Made by a program: the position numbers and the translations under genes. Below are positions 3,497 to 36,148 of a stretch of DNA of 64,000 bases, in pieces. Origin of the DNA: Methanocellales archaeon (GTDB taxonomy: Archaea > Halobacteriota > JAWCLZ01). The notes under the pieces were generated by a model. The model was not told where the DNA came from, searched no databases, and saw nothing but the letters and a program-made list of their open reading frames with translations. Every line of letters begins with the position of its first letter. Position 1 is the first letter of the stretch. The stretch lies in NCBI GenBank assembly GCA_038850275.1, contig JAWCLZ010000005.1, positions 10,084-74,083 of the forward strand. Reading direction: 5' to 3'.

Positions 3497-4504
3497 ATGC
3501 ACCTCAAGGCATATTTAATCAGGCGAATGGTTTCCCTCCTTCCAGTCCTCTTTGGCGTGAGCCTCATTACCTTTGCGCTCTCTCATTTAATACCCTCAGA
3601 CCCAGCTAGAGTCTGGGCAGGTGCGCGTGCAACTCCTGAGCAGGTTAAAATAATTGCAGTGCAGTATCACCTTAATGAGCCAATATATCTTCAATATTTT
3701 TATTACCTCAATGACCTAATTCACTTAAACTTGGGAATTTCGCCCACGACAAATAGACCAGTGGTTGAAGACCTAGCTGAATATTTCCCAGCAACCATGG
3801 AACTTGCGATTTACAGCACGCTTGTAATTATCATCTTTGGAGTTATCTTAGGCGTGCTCGCTGCGTTTCAAAAAAATAGAGCCATAGATGGTATAATAAA
3901 AAGCTTAGCCACATTTGGAATTTCAATGCCAATATTCTGGCTTGGCCTTGTGCTGCAGTTTATCTTCTATTACAAACTCGGGCTCTTCCCATATGGAGGG
4001 CGAATTTCAGGGGTTCCTCCCCCAGTTCATGTAACTGGGCTTTACACTATAGATAGCTTGATTAGCTTTAACTTTGAAGCATTGCTAAATAGCCTATGGT
4101 GCCTTGCACTTCCATCTTTTACCCTTGGCTTTGGTTTAATGGGGATAATTTTTAGGCACACTAGGGCAAGCATGCTTGAAGTGCTAAGCCAAGATTACAT
4201 AACTGCAGCTAGAGCTAGAGGGCTGCCTGAGCATAGGGTGCTATTTAAACATGCTCTTAAAAATGCTTTAATCCCAACCGCTACAATGGGTGGCTTTCTA
4301 TTTAGCTTGCTCCTTGGAGGGGCTGTTATAACTGAAACTGTGTTCGCTTGGCCAGGTATAGGGCGATATGCAGTTGGCTCTATGCTAAGCCTCGACTTTC
4401 CAGCGATAATGGGAGTTACCTTGCTCGCTGCTATTATTTATATCGTAGTCAATTTCAGCTTGGATTTGATCTATGTATTGCTTGACCCAAGGATAGGATA
4501 TTGA
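3497..4504 (+). CDS. ABC peptide/nickel transporter permease (OppB/DppB family)
   Basis: 335 aa polytopic protein with an EAA-like loop (ITAARARGLPEHRVLFKHALKNA). It is the first gene of a four-gene opp-like operon. Confidence 0.8.
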   Translation: MHLKAYLIRRMVSLLPVLFGVSLITFALSHLIPSDPARVWAGARATPEQVKIIAVQYHLNEPIYLQYFYYLNDLIHLNLGISPTTNRPVVEDLAEYFPATMELAIYSTLVIIIFGVILGVLAAFQKNRAIDGIIKSLATFGISMPIFWLGLVLQFIFYYKLGLFPYGGRISGVPPPVHVTGLYTIDSLISFNFEALLNSLWCLALPSFTLGFGLMGIIFRHTRASMLEVLSQDYITAARARGLPEHRVLFKHALKNALIPTATMGGFLFSLLLGGAVITETVFAWPGIGRYAVGSMLSLDFPAIMGVTLLAAIIYIVVNFSLDLIYVLLDPRIGY

Positions 4505-4508
4505 GACC

Positions 4509-5336
4509 ATGGCGTTGATCAAGCTAGTGAGGCAAAAAAGTTCCGCGATAGGGGGAGGAATTCTTTTTATCTTGACCTTGATTGCTTTACTTGGCCCTAT
4601 TCTCCTGCCAAGTGATCCCTATGAATTGAATTTTGAAGAAAAACTCCAGCCTCCTAGTTTTAAGCATATCTTTGGAACAGATGAATTTGGTAGAGATATA
4701 TTCACTCGAGTGATACATGGCGCGAGAATTTCACTTGGAATTAGTGCAGCAACATTGCTAATTTCAGCATCGCTTGGCATTGTAATTGGAATGATCGCTG
4801 GCTATTTAGGAGGGTGGGTGGATGAGATATTTATGAGGATAGCAGATATCTTCCTATCCATCCCTAGTTTAATCCTAGCTCTTGCTATAACAGCTGCACT
4901 TGGGCCTAGTTTGATCAATGTAATGATAGCCATTGGAATAGCTTGGTGGCCATTATATGCGCGATTGATGCGAGCTCAAGTGCTCTCGGTTAAGCAGAAT
5001 CAATATGTACTTGCTGCTGAAGCCATGGGAGGCAGCACTAGCTATATCTTACTTCGCCACGTTCTCCCTAATTCGATTTCGCCGTTGATTATAAACGCTG
5101 CTATGGATATTGGCAACATCCTCCTTGCAATAACTGCCCTTGGATTCATTGGATTTGGAGCACAGCCTCCGGTTCCCGAATGGGGGAGATTGGTGGTTGA
5201 TGGAAGAGCTTATTTAATCTCAGCTTGGTGGTATTCAACACTGCCTGGCTTTGTTATCTTCATCACAGTGCTAAGTGCAAATCTATTAAGCGATGGCCTA
5301 AGGGATATCCTTGATCCGAGGTGGAGATATGAATGA
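4509..5336 (+). CDS. ABC peptide/nickel transporter permease (OppC/DppC family)
   Basis: 275 aa and polytopic. Its 4-nt overlap with the next gene suggests translational coupling. Confidence 0.8.
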   Translation: MALIKLVRQKSSAIGGGILFILTLIALLGPILLPSDPYELNFEEKLQPPSFKHIFGTDEFGRDIFTRVIHGARISLGISAATLLISASLGIVIGMIAGYLGGWVDEIFMRIADIFLSIPSLILALAITAALGPSLINVMIAIGIAWWPLYARLMRAQVLSVKQNQYVLAAEAMGGSTSYILLRHVLPNSISPLIINAAMDIGNILLAITALGFIGFGAQPPVPEWGRLVVDGRAYLISAWWYSTLPGFVIFITVLSANLLSDGLRDILDPRWRYE

Positions 5337-6268
5337 GGAATGAAGTTTTACTCAGTGTTAAAAACCTTAAAGTGAGCTATCTCACTAGAAGTGGTTTGAT
5401 AAAAGCTCTTCATGGGGTTAGCTTTGAGGTAAAGAGAGGGGAGACCCTTGGCTTAACTGGTGAAAGTGGATGTGGCAAGACCACAACTGCTCTTGCAATT
5501 CTAAGATTACTTTCAAATGCAATAATTGAGGGGCAGGTCCTATTTAAAGGAGAGGATCTATTGAAGAAAACCGAGGGAGAACTTCGCTTGATTCGAGGGC
5601 GGGGGATTGCTATGATATTTCAAGAATTAACTGGTTTAAATCCAGTTTTGAAAATAGGGGATCAAATTCGCGAGGTAATAAAAATCCATAGGAGCTCACT
5701 TGACCCAGAGATGCTTTTACACCTACTCAGGCTTCCGGAGCCTAGATTTCTATTGAATTGCTATCCCCATCAATTGAGCAGTGGAATGAGGCAGAGAGTT
5801 ATGATTGCATTGGCAATTGCAAGCAAGCCAGAGCTGGTGATAGCTGATGAGCCAACTTCAATGCTCGATGCCACGGTTCAACTGCAGATTTTAAATTTGC
5901 TTAAGCAGCTTAAGAAAGAACTCGAACTTTCAATGCTATTGATATCCCATGATTTGAATATGTTAATGCAAATATGCGATAAGATAGCGTTTATGCACGT
6001 AGGCAAACTCATAGAGCTATGCTATATAGATGAAGAGAAGCTCCATCCCTATGTTCGCTTTCTCTTAAATATATCTTCAAGTAATCTGGAGGAGATATCT
6101 TCGAGTGATTTAATTGGAGATATTAATAATAAACTTCAAGGTACATCTAAAGGCTGCTTCTATCAAAAGCTATGTAAATATGCTAAGCCGATTTGCTATG
6201 TTTATGAACCTGAATTCCGCGAGGTAAAACCAGGGCATTTTCTAAGCTGCCACGCAAAGGGATACTAG
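5333..6268 (+). CDS. ABC transporter ATP-binding protein (OppD/DppD type with oligopeptide C-terminal domain)
   Basis: Walker A GESGCGKTT, signature LSSGMRQR, Walker B LVIADEPTSMLD. The C-terminal Cys motif KGCFYQKLCKYAKPIC is characteristic of Opp D/F ATPases. Confidence 0.85.
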   Translation: MRNEVLLSVKNLKVSYLTRSGLIKALHGVSFEVKRGETLGLTGESGCGKTTTALAILRLLSNAIIEGQVLFKGEDLLKKTEGELRLIRGRGIAMIFQELTGLNPVLKIGDQIREVIKIHRSSLDPEMLLHLLRLPEPRFLLNCYPHQLSSGMRQRVMIALAIASKPELVIADEPTSMLDATVQLQILNLLKQLKKELELSMLLISHDLNMLMQICDKIAFMHVGKLIELCYIDEEKLHPYVRFLLNISSSNLEEISSSDLIGDINNKLQGTSKGCFYQKLCKYAKPICYVYEPEFREVKPGHFLSCHAKGY

Positions 6269-7192
6269 ATGATCGTGCAAGCTAAAGAACTGCGCAAGTA
6301 CTTTAAAATCAAAGAGGGGCTTATCAAGGAGAAGGTAATACGCGCTGTGGATGGAATAGACCTAGCTATAAAAAAAGGCGAGACATTAGGCTTGGTAGGG
6401 GAAAGTGGATGTGGTAAGACCACTACTTGCAAGCTGCTTTTACGCTTGTTAGAGCCTGATAGTGGTAGTATATTTTTCAATGGCATTGAAATCACAAAGC
6501 TTGGGAAATTTGAGCTTCAAAAGCTTAGGGGGCAAATGCAAATGATATTTCAAGATGTATCAACTGCATTCGACCCTAGAATGAGGATCGAAGAAATAAT
6601 ATGTGAGCCTCTTGAGATATCTAGATTGAGTGTTGAAGAAAAGAAGGATCGATTGAGGGAAATAATGTTAGATGTTAAAATAAGTCCTAGTTTACTTGAT
6701 AAATATCCACATCAATTGAGCACTGGGCAAAAACAACGCGTTGGAATAGCTAGAGCATTAATTTCAAAACCTAAGTTTTTAATAGCAGATGAACCAGTTT
6801 CCCATCTCGATATAGCAATTCAAATGCAGATTTTAAATCTCCTGAGGGATTTAAAGGAAAAGTACAACTTGAGCTATCTCATAGTGGCTCACGATTTAAA
6901 AGCAATTAGATATATTGCTGACCGCATTTCAATTATGTATCTTGGCAAGATCTTGGAGACTGCAAGCTGTGAAGTCTTATTCACCAAACCAGTGCATCCA
7001 TATACAATTGCCCTGCTTGCCTCATCTAGTTTTAAAGAAGAATGGCTGCTCCTTCAAGAGCCTACAGAAAGTCCTCCATCTGGCTGTAGATTCCACCCTC
7101 GCTGTCCAATGCGTGAGCAAATCTGCTTGGAGATAGAACCTGAGATGGTAAAAGTAGGTAGAGATCACTTTGCAAGATGCCATTTTATTTAA
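6269..7192 (+). CDS. ABC transporter ATP-binding protein (OppF/DppF type)
   Basis: Walker A GESGCGKTT, signature LSTGQKQR, Walker B LIADEPVSHLD, and C-terminal CRFHPRCPMREQIC. Confidence 0.85.
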   Translation: MIVQAKELRKYFKIKEGLIKEKVIRAVDGIDLAIKKGETLGLVGESGCGKTTTCKLLLRLLEPDSGSIFFNGIEITKLGKFELQKLRGQMQMIFQDVSTAFDPRMRIEEIICEPLEISRLSVEEKKDRLREIMLDVKISPSLLDKYPHQLSTGQKQRVGIARALISKPKFLIADEPVSHLDIAIQMQILNLLRDLKEKYNLSYLIVAHDLKAIRYIADRISIMYLGKILETASCEVLFTKPVHPYTIALLASSSFKEEWLLLQEPTESPPSGCRFHPRCPMREQICLEIEPEMVKVGRDHFARCHFI

Positions 7193-7226: not shown

Positions 7227-8000
7227 TCAATCACGCGTGCTCAATGCATTGATGATATCTCTTCTCGTAACTATGCCTACAATTTCATCCTTCAAGTTGA
7301 GCACTGGCAAGCCACCTATATCCTCTTGAAGCATGAGCTTCTTTGCATCTTCAATAGAAGTATCTGTTCTAACATATTTTACATCCATGGTCATGATATC
7401 CTCAACCAGAAGCTTCTTCACCCTGCTATCTTGATGCATCCCTGGGACTAAGTCTCGAAATGATTTGAAAGCTCTTGCGATATCAGTTTCAGTGATTATA
7501 CCTATGAGTTTACTCCCCTCGACTACTGGCATTCTACCTATATCTCGATTAAGCATAATTCTCCTCACGTGAACCACTCTATCGCTCCTAGCAGCGGTTA
7601 TAGGCTCGCTCATTATTTGAGAGACATAGCCATCTAGATGAATTACCTTTAGCACCTCCTTTGGTGTAATCCAACCTATGAGTTTGCCTTGATAGACAGC
7701 GAGGGCTTCAGAATTTCTCATTAAAGCTAAGACATCGCTTATGCTTGCCTCAGCTAATATCTTGCTATATTTATTGCTCAAAGCAGTTGAAACGTGAAGC
7801 TGAGTTGCTGGAATGCTACCCTTCCTTCGCGAGCCTAATACTCTTACTATTTCTCGAAGTGTGATAATACCAGCTAGCTCGCCATTGCTTAACACAAGTA
7901 GCGATCTCCTCCTCTTCTTCTCCATTAAATCAAGTGCATTTGAGAGAGCTTCATTCTTATCTATTGCAACAGGTGCCTCCATTATATCACGCGCAAGCAT
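7227..8000 (-). CDS. CBS-domain-only protein (4 CBS motifs), last gene of a 5-gene CBS operon
   Basis: Repeated CBS cores (GRMPVVEGSKLIGIITETDI, GGLPVLNLKDEIVGIVTRRDII). No catalytic or transport domain. Confidence 0.75.
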   Translation of the reverse strand: MLARDIMEAPVAIDKNEALSNALDLMEKKRRRSLLVLSNGELAGIITLREIVRVLGSRRKGSIPATQLHVSTALSNKYSKILAEASISDVLALMRNSEALAVYQGKLIGWITPKEVLKVIHLDGYVSQIMSEPITAARSDRVVHVRRIMLNRDIGRMPVVEGSKLIGIITETDIARAFKSFRDLVPGMHQDSRVKKLLVEDIMTMDVKYVRTDTSIEDAKKLMLQEDIGGLPVLNLKDEIVGIVTRRDIINALSTRD

Positions 8001-8878
8001 TAAACTTCACCCCTTGCAATTGCAGCTACAATATCGGTCTTAGATATCATTCCAAGCAGTTCTCCATTCTTCACCGTTATTGCATCAACATCTTCTTCCA
8101 CTATCATTTTAGCAGCAGCTGTGGCAAGTGCTTGGGATTCAATTGTAAAGAGAGGGGAGGACATGATATCCTCAGCGATCAACATTACTTTTTTAACATA
8201 GCGATATTCTTTAATGCCAGCTGGTGAAGATTTACGAGTGAGCTTTAATTCCTTATTCAAGTCTCGCTCTGGATTTAAATCTATGAATGCAAGATCTGAA
8301 AGAGTAATTATACCAACAGGGGCTCCTTTTCCATCAACTACTATTACTCTATCCACCCCATTTTCATTCATTTGATCAATTACGTGATTAATTGAGTGAT
8401 ATCTATGAACAGTAACGAGGGTTGAGGACATGATATCATTAACTTTAACTTGAGATTTAGAATTAGCAAACCACTTCACTAAATCAAATGCTGTAATTAT
8501 GCCAATTAGTCTTTCATTTTCCACCACTGGCAAGCCTCTGATGTTATTTTCGATCATAAGCTCAGCCGCTTGCTTGGGCGTGGCTGAGGGATAAATGGTT
8601 ATTGGCTTTTCAGTCATAACGAGCTTCACTGGGATTCGATCTATAGGTCTCCTCCTCCAACTGGGCTCAGCTTGCAGCAATCGCTGGGTTAAATCTGATT
8701 TGGTTACCATTCCAATTAATTTCTCTTCCTCAGTCACTACCAATCTAGAGATCTTTCGCTTTAACATGAGGTTTCTAGCTCTAGCTATGGTATCACTAGC
8801 TGAAATGGTGTAAACAGGCGTGGACATTATTTCATTTACCTTCACTTCCCTCGTGGATATTATTTCATTTACCCTCAT
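8000..8878 (-). CDS. CBS-domain-only protein (4 CBS motifs)
   Basis: RGLPVVENERLIGIITAFDL, VDRVIVVDGKGAPVGIITLSDL. Its start abuts the stop of the downstream gene. Confidence 0.75.
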   Translation of the reverse strand: MRVNEIISTREVKVNEIMSTPVYTISASDTIARARNLMLKRKISRLVVTEEEKLIGMVTKSDLTQRLLQAEPSWRRRPIDRIPVKLVMTEKPITIYPSATPKQAAELMIENNIRGLPVVENERLIGIITAFDLVKWFANSKSQVKVNDIMSSTLVTVHRYHSINHVIDQMNENGVDRVIVVDGKGAPVGIITLSDLAFIDLNPERDLNKELKLTRKSSPAGIKEYRYVKKVMLIAEDIMSSPLFTIESQALATAAAKMIVEEDVDAITVKNGELLGMISKTDIVAAIARGEV

Positions 8879-9833
8879 GTCCCTCCTCCATTGCGCGTAG
8901 ATAATCTCTCTCAGTGATTATACCTAGGAGTACTCCATCTTTAATGACTGGCAAGGCCCCGATGTTTTTCTTCTTCATGATTTCAGCAGCATTAGCAAGG
9001 CTCTCATCGGGTGTAATTGTGGTTAAATCAGCTGACATCAATATCTTCAAGGGCATCTCAAGTGCTTCTTGGATATGCCCAGTCACAAGCTTGCTAAATA
9101 CCTCTCCGCTTGCGAAGTATCTTAAAATATCACTCGCGGTTACCATTCCAAGTAGTACGCCATTGCTGACTATTGGCAGTCTTCTGAAACCTTCTCCCAC
9201 CATTAGCTTTATTGCTCTCTCAATCGCTAGAGCAGGTGGAGCTGTGACTATGTTTTTGCTCATGTAATCCTTCACTAGCTTATGGCCCAAGCTAGGTAGA
9301 ACAATATATAGTATATCTCTCTCTGAAATTATCCCCACAATTCTATTTTCCTCATCCACAACTGGCAAGCCTCCTTTTTTATGGGCCATCATTAGCTCTA
9401 GTGCTTCTTTAAGCGAGCCTCCTCGATTTATAGTTATAACATTTTTCTCCATGATTTCCCGGACTTCTTCATTTATAGCTGCAAGTAAATTGCCTGAGTA
9501 TCGATTTTGCACAATTCTATGTCGCTCTCCCCCTCCTAAGAAGTCCAATATATCTAATACGGTAACTATTCCAACAAGCCTATTTGTACCTGCATCTGCA
9601 ACTGGAATTCTTCTATAGCCATATTGAGTCATAGTCTTTATAACACCCATGATTGTCATTGTGGGAGGCACAGTTATAACCTCTTTATTTGCAATCTTCA
9701 TAACCTCTCCATCGCGCTCTGGAATCCTTGATTTAAAATCCACTGGACCATAATCCTTCGTTCCCCTCCCAAACATCTCTGCGCCTTTCTTGGGAGGAGC
9801 TGGGCTTCCAGTTTTTTTAACCTTTTTCATCAT
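8865..9833 (-). CDS. CBS-domain-only protein (4 CBS motifs) with a basic N-terminal extension
   Basis: GALPVIKDGVLLGIITERD, RRLPIVSNGVLLGMVTASDI, GGLPVVDEENRIVGIISERDI. The N-terminus is Lys/Pro-rich (KKVKKTGSPAPPKKGAE). Confidence 0.75.
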   Translation of the reverse strand: MMKKVKKTGSPAPPKKGAEMFGRGTKDYGPVDFKSRIPERDGEVMKIANKEVITVPPTMTIMGVIKTMTQYGYRRIPVADAGTNRLVGIVTVLDILDFLGGGERHRIVQNRYSGNLLAAINEEVREIMEKNVITINRGGSLKEALELMMAHKKGGLPVVDEENRIVGIISERDILYIVLPSLGHKLVKDYMSKNIVTAPPALAIERAIKLMVGEGFRRLPIVSNGVLLGMVTASDILRYFASGEVFSKLVTGHIQEALEMPLKILMSADLTTITPDESLANAAEIMKKKNIGALPVIKDGVLLGIITERDYLRAMEEGHEGK

Positions 9834-10612
9834 TTAACCACGCTCAAATATGCCCTTATTATGTCGTAGCGATCCACTATTCCAATTAACTTGCTATTTT
9901 TAACCACTGGGATTCTCCCTATATCGTATTTTAACATTAATTCAGCTGCTTCTTTTGCAGTGCTTCCAGGTGTTACTGTATAAACTGGGGTTTTCATTAT
10001 CTTCTCAACCTTAGGGGTGAAGTTCAATTTCTTACGTTCATCTTCTTTCCCAATTCTAACATAGCCTGATTTCACAATATCAGACCTAGTGATGATGCCT
10101 ATTAATTTGTTTTTCCTTACAACTGGGAATCCTGAAATACCAAATTCAATCATATTATTCCAGATCTTGCTAATTGGCTCATCTGGGCTGCATGTTTTAA
10201 CATTCGCTGTCATTATATCTTTCACCTGTAGATTTGCAATTTTATCTAAATTTATTGCCTTAAAAATGTCCACAATACTCAGCATTCCCATGAGTACTGG
10301 ATTATGGGGTGATTCAACCACAGGCACGCGTGTGATTTCCCCCTCTATCATTGCCTTAGCAGCTGTTTCTAAGTCCATTTCAGGTGTTATCACTGGCGTT
10401 GGGTGGGTGAAGCCATTGACTGTTATATTTGACTTGGTGCTCGTGATTTTGAGGATATCTTGAATAGTTATAACGCCCTTAACTCGATTTTTCTCATCCA
10501 CAACTGGTAGAGTTCGTAAGCGATGGTCTCGCATAAGCTGCCTAGCTTTAGTTAGAAATTCATCTTCTCTGATAAATATGGGTCTCTGAGACATCACTTC
10601 TTTTATTTTCAT
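9830..10612 (-). CDS. CBS-domain-only protein (4 CBS motifs)
   Basis: RTLPVVDEKNRVKGVITIQDIL, GRIPVVKNSKLIGIVDRYDII. It overlaps the next gene by 4 nt. Confidence 0.75.
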   Translation of the reverse strand: MKIKEVMSQRPIFIREDEFLTKARQLMRDHRLRTLPVVDEKNRVKGVITIQDILKITSTKSNITVNGFTHPTPVITPEMDLETAAKAMIEGEITRVPVVESPHNPVLMGMLSIVDIFKAINLDKIANLQVKDIMTANVKTCSPDEPISKIWNNMIEFGISGFPVVRKNKLIGIITRSDIVKSGYVRIGKEDERKKLNFTPKVEKIMKTPVYTVTPGSTAKEAAELMLKYDIGRIPVVKNSKLIGIVDRYDIIRAYLSVVK

Positions 10613-10627
10613 TAAGAACTCTCCATT

Positions 10628-11209
10628 TTACAATTCATCCTTTAGCTCGTCCTTGCAGCTCTCGCAAACAAGAGTTCCATTCATTGATTCCAGCGATTCT
10701 GAAATGGCACCGCATCTCTCGCAAATTCCTTGGACAAAACTTCTTGGGCTCTCGGATAGAGGTTCTCTATTTATCTCCATCAATTCTAATAAAGTTTCAT
10801 TGAGCTCCGCAGATGCCGCAATTACATCTGTATCTGTAACGATTCCAAGGAGCTCACCTTTTTCAACCACAGGTAGTCTTCGAATATTCATTTTTACCAT
10901 CTTCTTCGCCACTTCGATTAAGCTAGAATCAGGAGATATCGTGATCAAGGGTGACTTCATTAGTCTGGCTATCTTCATCTCACTTGGCTTAATATTTGGA
11001 GCGATGATCTCCCTGACCATATCGCGCTCAGTCACGATACCAACAGGCTCTCCTTTTTTCATCACAATTACGCTGCCCACATCGTGTTTAATCATCTCCT
11101 TTGCGGCGTCTGAGGCATTTCCATTTATATCGATGGTTACAACTTTTTTAGTCATAATCTGGCTCACTGGGATGTGTCGACTTCTTCTGGTAGATGTTTT
11201 CTCAGCCAT
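10628..11209 (-). CDS. CBS-pair protein with C-terminal C4 zinc ribbon, first gene of the CBS operon
   Basis: Two CBS motifs (RRLPVVEKGELLGIVTDTDVI) are followed by CERCGAISESLESMNGTLVCESCKDE (CxxC-x16-CxxC). Confidence 0.7.
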   Translation of the reverse strand: MAEKTSTRRSRHIPVSQIMTKKVVTIDINGNASDAAKEMIKHDVGSVIVMKKGEPVGIVTERDMVREIIAPNIKPSEMKIARLMKSPLITISPDSSLIEVAKKMVKMNIRRLPVVEKGELLGIVTDTDVIAASAELNETLLELMEINREPLSESPRSFVQGICERCGAISESLESMNGTLVCESCKDELKDEL

Positions 11210-11298
11210 TTTAAACCTCTGCGCAGTTATTTAATTAGTTATTACAATTCGATGCCTTATGAATTTTTTGCGAGGGTTTTGTGAGGAAAGCAAAAGAG

Positions 11299-11780: not shown

Positions 11781-12035
11781 TTACTTTGCTGTTAATAAAG
11801 ACCAGATCATGAGCAATACCAGTAGCAGTAAAAAGCCCACGAAGAATATTTTTTGCCTCCTCTGCGTTCTATTGAACTCATTCTTGCATTCCTCGCTACA
11901 GTAGAGGGACTCTGGATCGACTGCTTTGCCACATACAATGCAGTGCTTATGAGGGGTTACCTTGACCATTTTCCACCTCTTCAACCGAAACGTCTTAGTA
12001 TGTATAGCACCACGTATATATGGATTCCTCTTCAA
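11781..12035 (-). CDS. small Zn-ribbon protein with C-terminal TM helix (DUF2116-like)
   Basis: HCIVCGKAVDPESLYCSEECKNEF followed by the hydrophobic tail IFFVGFLLLLVLLMIWSLL. Its 5' end overlaps the pyrH start on the opposite strand unless the internal Met at 11969 is the true start. Confidence 0.45.
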   Translation of the reverse strand: MKRNPYIRGAIHTKTFRLKRWKMVKVTPHKHCIVCGKAVDPESLYCSEECKNEFNRTQRRQKIFFVGFLLLLVLLMIWSLLTAK

Positions 12036-12731
12036 GGCGGGATTGGTCTGAAAATCGTGATATCAATCGGGGGCTCGATTATTGCTCAGGAGATAAATGC
12101 GGAGAGATTCGCTGAGTATGCAAGGGTGATTAAGAAAATTGCAAAGAAGCATAAAGTGGCAGTAGTAACAGGTGGTGGAGCTATCGCAAGAAATTATATA
12201 AATGCTGCTAGGAAATTAGGTGCTGATGAAGCAAGCTGTGATTTAATTGGCATAGAGGTAACTAGATTAAATGCTAGATTACTTATCTCAGCCCTTCATC
12301 CAGATGTCTATCCTCAGCCAGCTTTGGACTACAAAGAAGCTGAATCTGCTTTAAGCTCAAGAAGAATCGTGGTAATGGGAGGAGTTGCTCCAGGTCAAAC
12401 CACAGATGCTGTTGCTGCGATCCTAGCTGAACATCTTAAAGCAGATCTATTGGTTAATGCCACCTCAGTAGATGGTATATATAGTGCTGATCCAAGGCTT
12501 GATCCAAAAGCTAGGAAATTCGATAAATTGAGTCCAAGAGAGCTCGTGGAAATTGCTATGAAGGTTGAAATGAAAGCTGGTTCTAAATTTCCAATTGATC
12601 CCTTAGGTGCAAAGATAATTGAACGCTCAAACATCCCAACTATTGTTTTAAATGGCATCAATCCCCAGAATATTTTAGATGCAATTTTATTGAAAAAGAA
12701 AATAGGAACAGTCATTAGGAACAGTCATTAG
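12000..12731 (+). CDS. pyrH: uridylate (UMP) kinase, archaeal type
   Basis: KIVISIGGS ... VVTGGGAIARNY ... VVMGGVAPGQTTDAVAAILAEHLKADLLVNATSVDGIYSADP is a UMP kinase/amino-acid-kinase fold signature. I took the ATG at 12000; the ORF-track start at 11853 is an upstream in-frame extension. Confidence 0.85.
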   Translation: MYSTTYIWIPLQGGIGLKIVISIGGSIIAQEINAERFAEYARVIKKIAKKHKVAVVTGGGAIARNYINAARKLGADEASCDLIGIEVTRLNARLLISALHPDVYPQPALDYKEAESALSSRRIVVMGGVAPGQTTDAVAAILAEHLKADLLVNATSVDGIYSADPRLDPKARKFDKLSPRELVEIAMKVEMKAGSKFPIDPLGAKIIERSNIPTIVLNGINPQNILDAILLKKKIGTVIRNSH

Positions 12732-36021: not shown

Positions 36022-36117
36022 GCCTCAGTAGCTCAGTGGGTAGAGCGCTTCCTTGGTAGCAGGATTAAAGTCCTGATGAAAAGGAAGAGGTTCACGGGTT
36101 CAATCCCCGTCTGAGGC
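36022..36117 (+). tRNA. intron-containing tRNA, anticodon GGU (Thr) by my fold
   Basis: Acceptor gcctcag/ctgaggc, D-arm gctc-agtgggta-gagc, anticodon stem cttcc/ggaag, T-arm acggg-ttcaatc-cccgt. The 96 nt implies a ~23-nt intron (36059-36081) 3' of anticodon-loop position 37. The anticodon loop before the intron reads ttGGTa. Confidence 0.65.
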
Positions 36118-36148
36118 TTATTTAATTTTACAGTAGGTTGCGAGAAAT

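Follow-up and report, generated by a model that had tools for sequence, protein, structure and literature searches.

What might five consecutive genes do in an archaeon when their products are built of CBS domains? The genes in question lie on the minus strand of a 64,000-nucleotide stretch of contig JAWCLZ010000005.1 (the window), from an uncultured archaeon related to the Methanocellales; we number them 1 to 5 and call their products C1 to C5. A first-pass annotation, made from the letters of the window, described them as CBS-only proteins with about 18 motifs and suggested a hetero-oligomeric adenosyl-ligand (AMP, ATP or SAM) sensor or a diversified paralog array. We conclude, with high confidence, that genes 2 to 5 are the sriABCD ribosome-hibernation operon of this archaeon and that gene 1 is its conserved, probably co-transcribed companion.

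Orthology of genes 2 to 5 to SriA-SriD

The five open reading frames (ORFs) were found at 7227-11209, where the first-pass annotation had placed them (Table 1), and Pfam bears out its description of their content: CBS (PF00571) is matched in 2+4+4+4+4 stretches (E 5e-31 to 5e-63), and the sole other match among the five proteins is a sub-threshold one of DUF7573 on the cysteine ribbon of C1. Orthologs of C2-C5 were assigned by phmmer against PDB sequences, as one-to-one calls from the best matches. According to the data-availability statement of the Sri paper (Nissley et al., Nat Commun, June 2026; PMC13454478), entry 9ZNF is the 70S ribosome with SriA and SriB, 9ZNG the 70S with SriD, and 9ZNI the 70S with SriC and SriD. 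Each of the four window proteins has a different Sri chain as its best match, and this cognate chain scores more than 50 orders of magnitude better than the non-cognate Sri paralogs, which lie at E 1e-13 to 1e-22. The cognate matches run in gene order, A-B-C-D on one strand, the same in the window and in Methanosarcina acetivorans, and C2-C5 are therefore assigned as SriA-SriD.

The matches extend beyond the CBS cores. Residues 4-319 of C3 align with residues 21-335 of SriB, including the N-terminal extension (C3 4-43 against SriB 21-60), which holds 11 lysines and arginines in 43 residues and in which F33 and R36 are invariant among 15 diverse orthologs. A strict pattern for this tail, F[KR]SR, is present in 44 of 83 orthologs; the pattern is too strict, and the alignment invariants are preferred. 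In C4, the basic loop at residues 202-237 contains 9 lysines and arginines, and its core, KLTRKSSPAGIKEYRYVKKV, is nearly identical to the M. acetivorans SriC hairpin. C2-C5 are all basic, with isoelectric points (pI) of 8.9-9.7 (9.66 for C2). The earlier statement that none of the proteins carries an effector domain thus stands at the level of Pfam domains and falls short at the level of effector elements, namely the basic N-terminal tail of C3 and the basic loop of C4, both of which escape domain searches.

The genes are tightly spaced, with a 15-nucleotide (nt) gap between C1 and C2 and overlaps of 4 nt (C2/C3), 14 nt (C3/C4) and 1 nt (C4/C5). At its 5' end (8843-8878), sriC has a 33-nt (11-codon) tandem duplication, MRVNEIISTREVK followed by VNEIMSTP; a relative that is 88% identical (locus L004 of the scan described below) reads MRVDEIMSTP at the start of sriC, without the duplication. 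The internal GTG at 8845, which is preceded by GAGGG, may be the true start, giving a protein of 281 amino acids (aa). The overlap first reported at 8865-8878 is present as annotated and would be replaced by a 19-nt gap if sriC starts at this GTG.

Pairwise alignment of C1-C5 gives identities of 26-33%, which indicates that the duplications are old and that there was no recent expansion; the suggestion of a diversified paralog array is upheld.

What the four proteins do is best known from M. acetivorans. There sriABCD (MA4648-MA4651; single ribosomal subunit inhibitors) is one polycistronic unit, each Sri protein inhibits in vitro translation, and in the quadruple deletion the lag that follows 28 days of stationary phase is 32% longer, while 30S subunits and the 3' end of 16S rRNA are lost (PMC13454478). 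Cryo-electron microscopy (cryo-EM) places SriA in the A and P sites of the large subunit, where the N-terminal extension of SriB wedges at A2602 (E. coli numbering) and passes through the peptidyl-transferase center into the exit tunnel; SriD, the main translation inhibitor, fills the A site, decoding center and mRNA channel of the small subunit, and SriC lies in the P/E sites of that subunit, its beta-hairpin binding uS11 and sequestering the 16S 3' end (PMC13454478). The SriA-SriB and SriC-SriD pairs share conserved interfaces, either pair (AB or CD) can occur without the other, and sriA-D is syntenic in 529 GTDB species; SriB proteins without the N-terminal extension are called 'SriB-short', and SriC proteins with a short or less basic loop 'SriC-short' (PMC13454478). 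Nissley et al. identify ARC-P and ARC-A of Methanolobus as the orthologs of SriC and SriD (PMC13454478). On the ribosome, ARC-P/ARC-A is stabilized by AMP and released by ATP; AMP occupies three sites of the pair, namely CBS1 and CBS2 of ARC-P and CBS3 of ARC-A (D176), CBS1 of ARC-A is empty because of N50, and the ATP that releases the complex from ribosomes is modeled at the arginine pocket of ARC-A CBS4 (10.64898/2026.01.19.700304).

The first-pass annotation had suggested inspecting the ligand-binding residues of each CBS pair. The ribose-binding signature G-h-h-[ST]-x-x-D is kept in 15 of the 18 CBS motifs of the window, the exceptions being SriA CBS4 (GIVDRYD), SriD CBS1 (E50) and SriD CBS2 (E115). 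All four CBS motifs of C4 have [ST]xxD, and C5 has T170/D173 in CBS3 and T245-R-R-D248 in CBS4. Compared by description only, the window SriD resembles ARC-A in having the canonical motif only in CBS3 and CBS4 and a residue other than Asp at position 50, although that residue is Glu here and Asn in ARC-A.

Based on these experimentally characterized orthologs, we infer the following mechanism for the window. On energy exhaustion, with translation stalled, the four basic proteins of four CBS motifs (4xCBS) would bind vacant ribosomes as two alternative pairs. SriA would occupy the A and P tRNA sites of the large subunit, and the basic N-terminal tail of SriB would wedge against it at the peptidyl-transferase center and enter the exit tunnel. 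On the small subunit, SriD would fill the A site, the decoding center and the mRNA channel, with SriC in the P/E sites, where its hairpin would engage uS11 and sequester the 16S 3' end. Binding of the Sri proteins would halt translation and shield rRNA from nucleases, allowing a faster exit from long dormancy. The CBS pockets would serve as an energy gauge, with AMP holding SriC/SriD on the ribosome and ATP releasing them.

Table 1. Features of the window and of sri loci in other genomes. Numbers prefixed by L denote loci, whose positions are given in the coordinates of the locus; all other positions are those of the window. E-values are from phmmer against PDB sequences.
Feature	Position	Strand	Length	Content	Best PDB chain (E)	Next match (E)
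C1 (gene 1)	10628-11209	minus	193 aa	2 CBS and C-terminal four-Cys ribbon
C2 (gene 2), sriA ortholog	9830-10612	minus	260 aa	4 CBS	9znf_4, SriA (2e-74)	7e-22
C3 (gene 3), sriB ortholog	8865-9833	minus	322 aa	Basic N-terminal extension of ~43 aa and 4 CBS	9znf_5, SriB (1.4e-87)	MJ1225 (3e-67)
C4 (gene 4), sriC / ARC-P ortholog	8000-8878	minus	292 aa (281 aa if GTG 8845)	4 CBS and basic loop ~202-237	9zni_6, SriC (3.4e-80)	1.4e-24
C5 (gene 5), sriD / ARC-A ortholog	7227-8000	minus	257 aa	4 CBS	9zng_7 / 9zni_7, SriD (1.6e-73)	1.9e-20
Candidate B recognition element (BRE)/TATA-like box	11255-11269	minus		AAAAAATTCATAAGG, ~45-60 nt upstream of the C1 start
GAGG Shine-Dalgarno of C1	11216-11219	minus		Between candidate box and C1 start
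pyrH	11853-12731
oppB-, oppC-, oppD-, oppF-like genes	3497-7192			Convergent on sriD
Geranylgeranyl-reductase-like flavoprotein	1570-2757	minus
Helicase_C_2 protein	65-1174
tRNA (Rfam)	36022-36118		97 nt	56 bits
RNA ligase, other loci	L001 10547-11713; L002 10657-11829; L087 7403-8536; most of L004-L083			PF09414 and Lig_C
GTPase-OapB-OapC trio, other loci	L003 5067-6500; L084 2212-3664; also L007-L011, L013, L017, L035, L041

Gene 1, a dual-CBS protein with a cysteine ribbon

C1 begins with a short basic N-terminus. Its AlphaFold2 model (pLDDT 85.5) shows a Bateman module at residues ~15-135, followed by a helix, an acidic disordered linker and a small putative zinc ribbon (161-190). The cysteines are spaced C163-x2-C166-x15-C182-x2-C185, which corrects the spacer of 16 residues first given to 15. 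All 72 orthologs have the CxxC...CxxC motif, an alignment of 30 of them shows no change at any of the four cysteines, and both CBS motifs of C1 keep [ST]xxD. C1 is acidic (pI 5.6), and so, with a median net charge of -4 among orthologs, is the ribbon, in contrast to the basic Sri proteins. Two orthologs of 214-216 aa (P0163 and P0173, one of them on a 2.6-Mb contig) have an insertion with a second CxxC...CxxC and thus two ribbons. Searched alone against 1.8 billion representative proteins, the ribbon tail returned almost only proteins of ~180-215 aa that end in this tail, and a fusion of the tail to a 4xCBS protein was never among these matches.

The position of gene 1 is strongly conserved. 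Of the 71 species-level loci that could be assessed, 70 have it directly upstream of sriA in the same orientation. Between the two ORFs lie 39 nt in the median; more than 100 nt separate them only in GoM-Arc1 (115 nt) and Methanosarcina (227 nt), and in Methanomicrobiales they overlap by 4 nt. The gap in the window holds a GGAGAG Shine-Dalgarno sequence and is too small for a promoter; at 15 nt here, as against ~227 nt in Methanosarcina, it suggests that C1 and sriA are probably co-transcribed in this genome. An A/T-rich candidate BRE/TATA-like promoter box and a Shine-Dalgarno sequence precede C1 (Table 1), and both are conserved in the three closest relatives (L004, L005 and L006), where the surrounding sequence diverges. 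Across species-level loci, C1 is 39-55% identical to its orthologs, comparable to the 37-57% of the Sri proteins. In position and architecture, C1 corresponds to MA4647 of M. acetivorans, which the Sri paper mentions once, as a dual-CBS gene immediately 5' of sriA (PMC13454478); a literature search on MA4647, Ta0289 and TV1335 returned that paper alone, for MA4647.

Foldseek of the C1 model returned generic CBS pairs and TA0289 of Thermoplasma acidophilum (PDB 1PVM, 2QH1), the latter over 174 columns across both domains with a TM-score of 0.59-0.64. TA0289, described as 'CBS-rubredoxin-like', shares with C1 a CBS pair and, C-terminal to it, a small ribbon with four cysteines; a deposited structure of TA0289 is Fe2+-bound. 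The two proteins are, however, only 25% identical and differ in domain orientation (root-mean-square deviation ~13 Å), and TA0289 has no known link to sri genes or ribosomes; phmmer aligns the CBS pair only (residues 14-136, E 4e-12). Judged from synteny only, C1 is likely an accessory protein, and possibly a regulator, that senses nucleotides, the metal-redox state or both.

Several points weigh against our assignment of the array. Function is transferred from orthologs that are ~48-51% identical (Methanosarcina locus L080), and the SriB tail of the window is ~17 residues shorter than that of M. acetivorans and so may reach less deep into the exit tunnel. Control by AMP and ATP has been demonstrated only for the SriC/SriD pair, in Methanolobus and in a preprint (10.64898/2026.01.19.700304). 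For the link to gene 1 in particular, no reads span MA4647 to sriA in exponential phase, and sriABCD alone was deleted and complemented, with MA4647 unmentioned there (PMC13454478). The five-gene transcript that the first-pass annotation had envisaged is thus a 4+1 arrangement in M. acetivorans, where the separate MA4647 transcript fits the wide 227-nt gap. One ANME-1 genome has a C1 ortholog without a sri neighbor, and the acidic ribbon argues against direct rRNA binding.

Could C1 instead be an integral fifth member of the hibernation system? We regard this as possible but doubtful. As a nucleotide and/or metal-redox switch, C1 would bind a Sri protein or a ribosomal protein through its acidic ribbon and control loading or release. 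Its place 5' of sriA in all but one of the assessable loci, across several orders and with short or overlapping junctions except in Methanosarcina, speaks for such a role, as do its conservation on a par with the Sri proteins, its invariant cysteines and canonical CBS sites, the charge complementarity between its ribbon and the basic Sri proteins, and the Fe2+-bound structure of TA0289, which has the same architecture. Yet C1 is absent from the reports of native and reconstituted ribosome cryo-EM maps in the Sri and ARC papers; the separate MA4647 transcript in exponential phase and the solitary ANME-1 ortholog also count against it.

The array in other archaea and its neighbors

An alignment of C3 was used to scan one genome per GTDB species, which gave 80 loci, and the ORFs of these loci were assigned to C1-C5 by best BLASTP (ratio of best to second-best bit score: median 3.7, minimum 2.0). 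All five genes are present in the order 1-2-3-4-5 in 57 of the 80 loci, and most of the remainder are interrupted by contig ends. The synteny is therefore conserved, and a lineage-specific expansion without conservation, which the first-pass annotation had named as a refuting outcome, is not what we find. The loci span Methanocellales, Methanosarcinaceae, Methanotrichaceae, Methanoperedenaceae, ANME-2 and Archaeoglobi, and orthologs of C3 are 47-59% identical in Methanocellales, Methanosarcinales, ANME-2, Methanoperedens, Archaeoglobi and Syntropharchaeia. A homolog search with C3 also returned an NCBI protein that is 100% identical to it, although an exact-sequence look-up gave no match. Separate look-ups also found the five-gene array in Methanoperedens, a JGI contig and Methanomicrobiales. 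Six loci, mainly of Methanocellaceae (L003, L008, L009, L010, L012 and L044), have C1-sriA-sriB only, with unrelated genes next to them; sriC and sriD have been lost there or lie elsewhere in the genome, which fits the separable AB and CD pairs.

Three archaeal C1-sri contigs (L012, L038 and L057) are in metagenome-assembled genomes labeled Pseudomonadota, Anaerolineales and Dojkabacteria. L057 matches the Methanosalsum natronophilum locus L058 in architecture and coordinates, with near-identical scores, and the bacterial labels are probably due to binning contamination.

A further gene recurs downstream. In 63 of the 70 loci that could be assessed, the gene directly 3' of sriD, in the same orientation, encodes an RNA ligase (PF09414 and Lig_C), at a median distance of 2 nt; no RNA ligase follows sriD in the window or in L005, L007, L011, L020 and L081. 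From its domains we assign the ligase to the Rnl3 type, as in Pab1020 and MthRnl. The near-constant attachment of C1 upstream and of the ligase downstream of sriABCD in Halobacteriota is a small and apparently undescribed observation: the words 'ligase', 'GTPase' and 'zinc ribbon' are absent from the text of the Sri paper (PMC13454478), the ARC preprint (10.64898/2026.01.19.700304) is without a gene-neighborhood analysis, and among the papers searched none joins ribosome hibernation, archaea, CBS and RNA ligase.

One tentative reading of this arrangement, which we consider unlikely rather than probable, is that the unit in Halobacteriota comprises six genes: C1, sriA, sriB, sriC, sriD and the Rnl3-type RNA ligase. 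C1 would be the missing regulator, making Sri load onto or leave ribosomes in response to the nucleotide state, the metal-redox state or both, and the ligase would repair or circularize RNA (ends of rRNA or tRNA) while cells are dormant or as dormancy ends. The window would then have kept C1 tightly coupled to sriA and lost the ligase.

An Archaeoglobaceae locus (L087, 6001-12540) holds C1, an RNA ligase and, between them, a SriB-like protein of 286 aa that lacks the N-terminal tail and shares 41% identity with residues 44-315 of C3. Beyond the ligase are genes for a SHS2_Rpb7-N and S1 protein, Spt4, S24e and S27, a transcription/translation neighborhood.

A divergent trio of genes for a GTPase (MMR_HSR1), OapB and OapC directly adjoins C1 on its upstream side in 12 loci, which belong to Methanocellales, Archaeoglobi and Methanomicrobiales; in several of these, pyrH lies beyond the trio. 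The window has pyrH but no trio; here the array is preceded by a 146-aa ORF without a Pfam match, a DUF2116 treble-clef protein and pyrH. On the other side, the opp-like operon converges on sriD, as first described, and its lack of a substrate-binding-protein gene is borne out by the stretch between 2757 and 3497, which has no such ORF. The nearest ORFs before the opp genes encode a geranylgeranyl-reductase-like flavoprotein and a Helicase_C_2 protein (Table 1). ARAGORN finds no tRNA in the window; Rfam finds one, far from the array, which is probably an intron-containing archaeal tRNA.

Comparison with other CBS systems

If the ribosome is left out of account, the five proteins could be read as a free-standing sensor of adenosyl ligands (AMP, ATP or S-adenosylmethionine), similar to the AMPK gamma subunit, with a non-ribosomal target or a role as nucleotide buffer. 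The 15 motifs with a canonical ribose-binding [ST]xxD and the closeness of C3 to MJ1225 (E 3e-67) are what one would cite for it, but one-to-one orthologs have been seen on ribosomes at 2.0-2.9 Å, with genetic and in vitro translation phenotypes, C3 and C4 keep the ribosome-contacting tail and loop, and the annotated genes on either side of the array include no AMPK alpha or beta partner. We therefore consider this reading very improbable. Of the sensor first proposed, the hetero-oligomeric and nucleotide-responsive part survives, in the SriA-SriB and SriC-SriD pairs and in the control of the ARC-P/ARC-A orthologs by AMP and ATP; the free-standing part does not, as the complex assembles on the ribosome, the target that had been missed. 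Least probable of all is that one or more of the 4xCBS proteins is a DNA-binding regulator like HhpR, a 4xCBS activator of Pyrococcus yayanosii with the same four-CBS-only architecture and partial NCBIfam matches to our proteins, which is effectively refuted by NF053603 scores of 47-87 bits, where the curated cut-off is 520, and by the far better matches to the orthologous Sri chains. Partial NCBIfam matches to PrdR, IMPDH, PPase, HhpR, CbpB and others were all far below their cut-offs and reflect generic CBS similarity.

The assignment of genes 2 to 5 as sriABCD places the array in a system published in 2026, and it is therefore already known; the value lies in correct annotation and not in discovery. 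The 2026 work has turned archaeal CBS-only proteins, long annotated as orphan 'signal-transduction' modules, into ribosome hibernation factors, and the window offers a clean orthologous example of sri from an uncultured Methanocellales-related lineage. Two questions left by the Sri and ARC papers are what keeps Sri from binding ribosomes during growth and what happens to damaged ends of rRNA. C1 and the RNA ligase are concrete candidates for control of Sri binding and for handling of rRNA ends.

Among known proteins, MJ1225 of Methanocaldococcus jannaschii (PDB 3KH5, 3LFZ) is a 4xCBS protein whose crystal structure has reportedly been compared with the AMPK gamma subunit. It is very close to the CBS core of the window SriB (residues 44-313) but has no N-terminal ribosome-binding extension, and would therefore be a 'SriB-short' in the terms of Nissley et al. 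(PMC13454478).

C4 and C2 also match longer chains. C4 aligns with the C-terminal lobe (residues 331-634) of 9e6q_3, a chain of 655 aa. The match of C2 covers 250 residues of 9sr9_H (392 aa), probably a CBS module of the HibA type. Chain 9e6q_3 is taken as Dri, from the statement in the Sri paper that SriC is homologous to the C-terminal lobe of Dri (PMC13454478). In Dri (dual ribosomal subunit inhibitor, PDB 9E6Q chain 3) and in HibA/AHA (PMC13324472, PMC12934967), homologous 4xCBS lobes block ribosomal sites. Dri differs from the window in joining two such lobes in one polypeptide of ~650 aa, whereas the lobes are separate genes here (260 and 292 aa) and have two extra partners, SriB and SriD. 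HibA/AHA differs in that its CBS module is fused to HPF/RaiA, of which Pfam and NCBIfam give no match in any of the five proteins.

The closest system is SriA-D of M. acetivorans. Beyond the sequence divergence and the shorter SriB tail noted above, the window differs in the absence of the disordered N-terminal extension of ~17 aa that M. acetivorans SriD has, in the 11-codon duplication at the 5' end of sriC, and, from its relatives more generally, in the absence of their usual RNA ligase gene after sriD. The overall plan is nevertheless the same in both: four consecutive 4xCBS genes with a dual-CBS gene immediately upstream.

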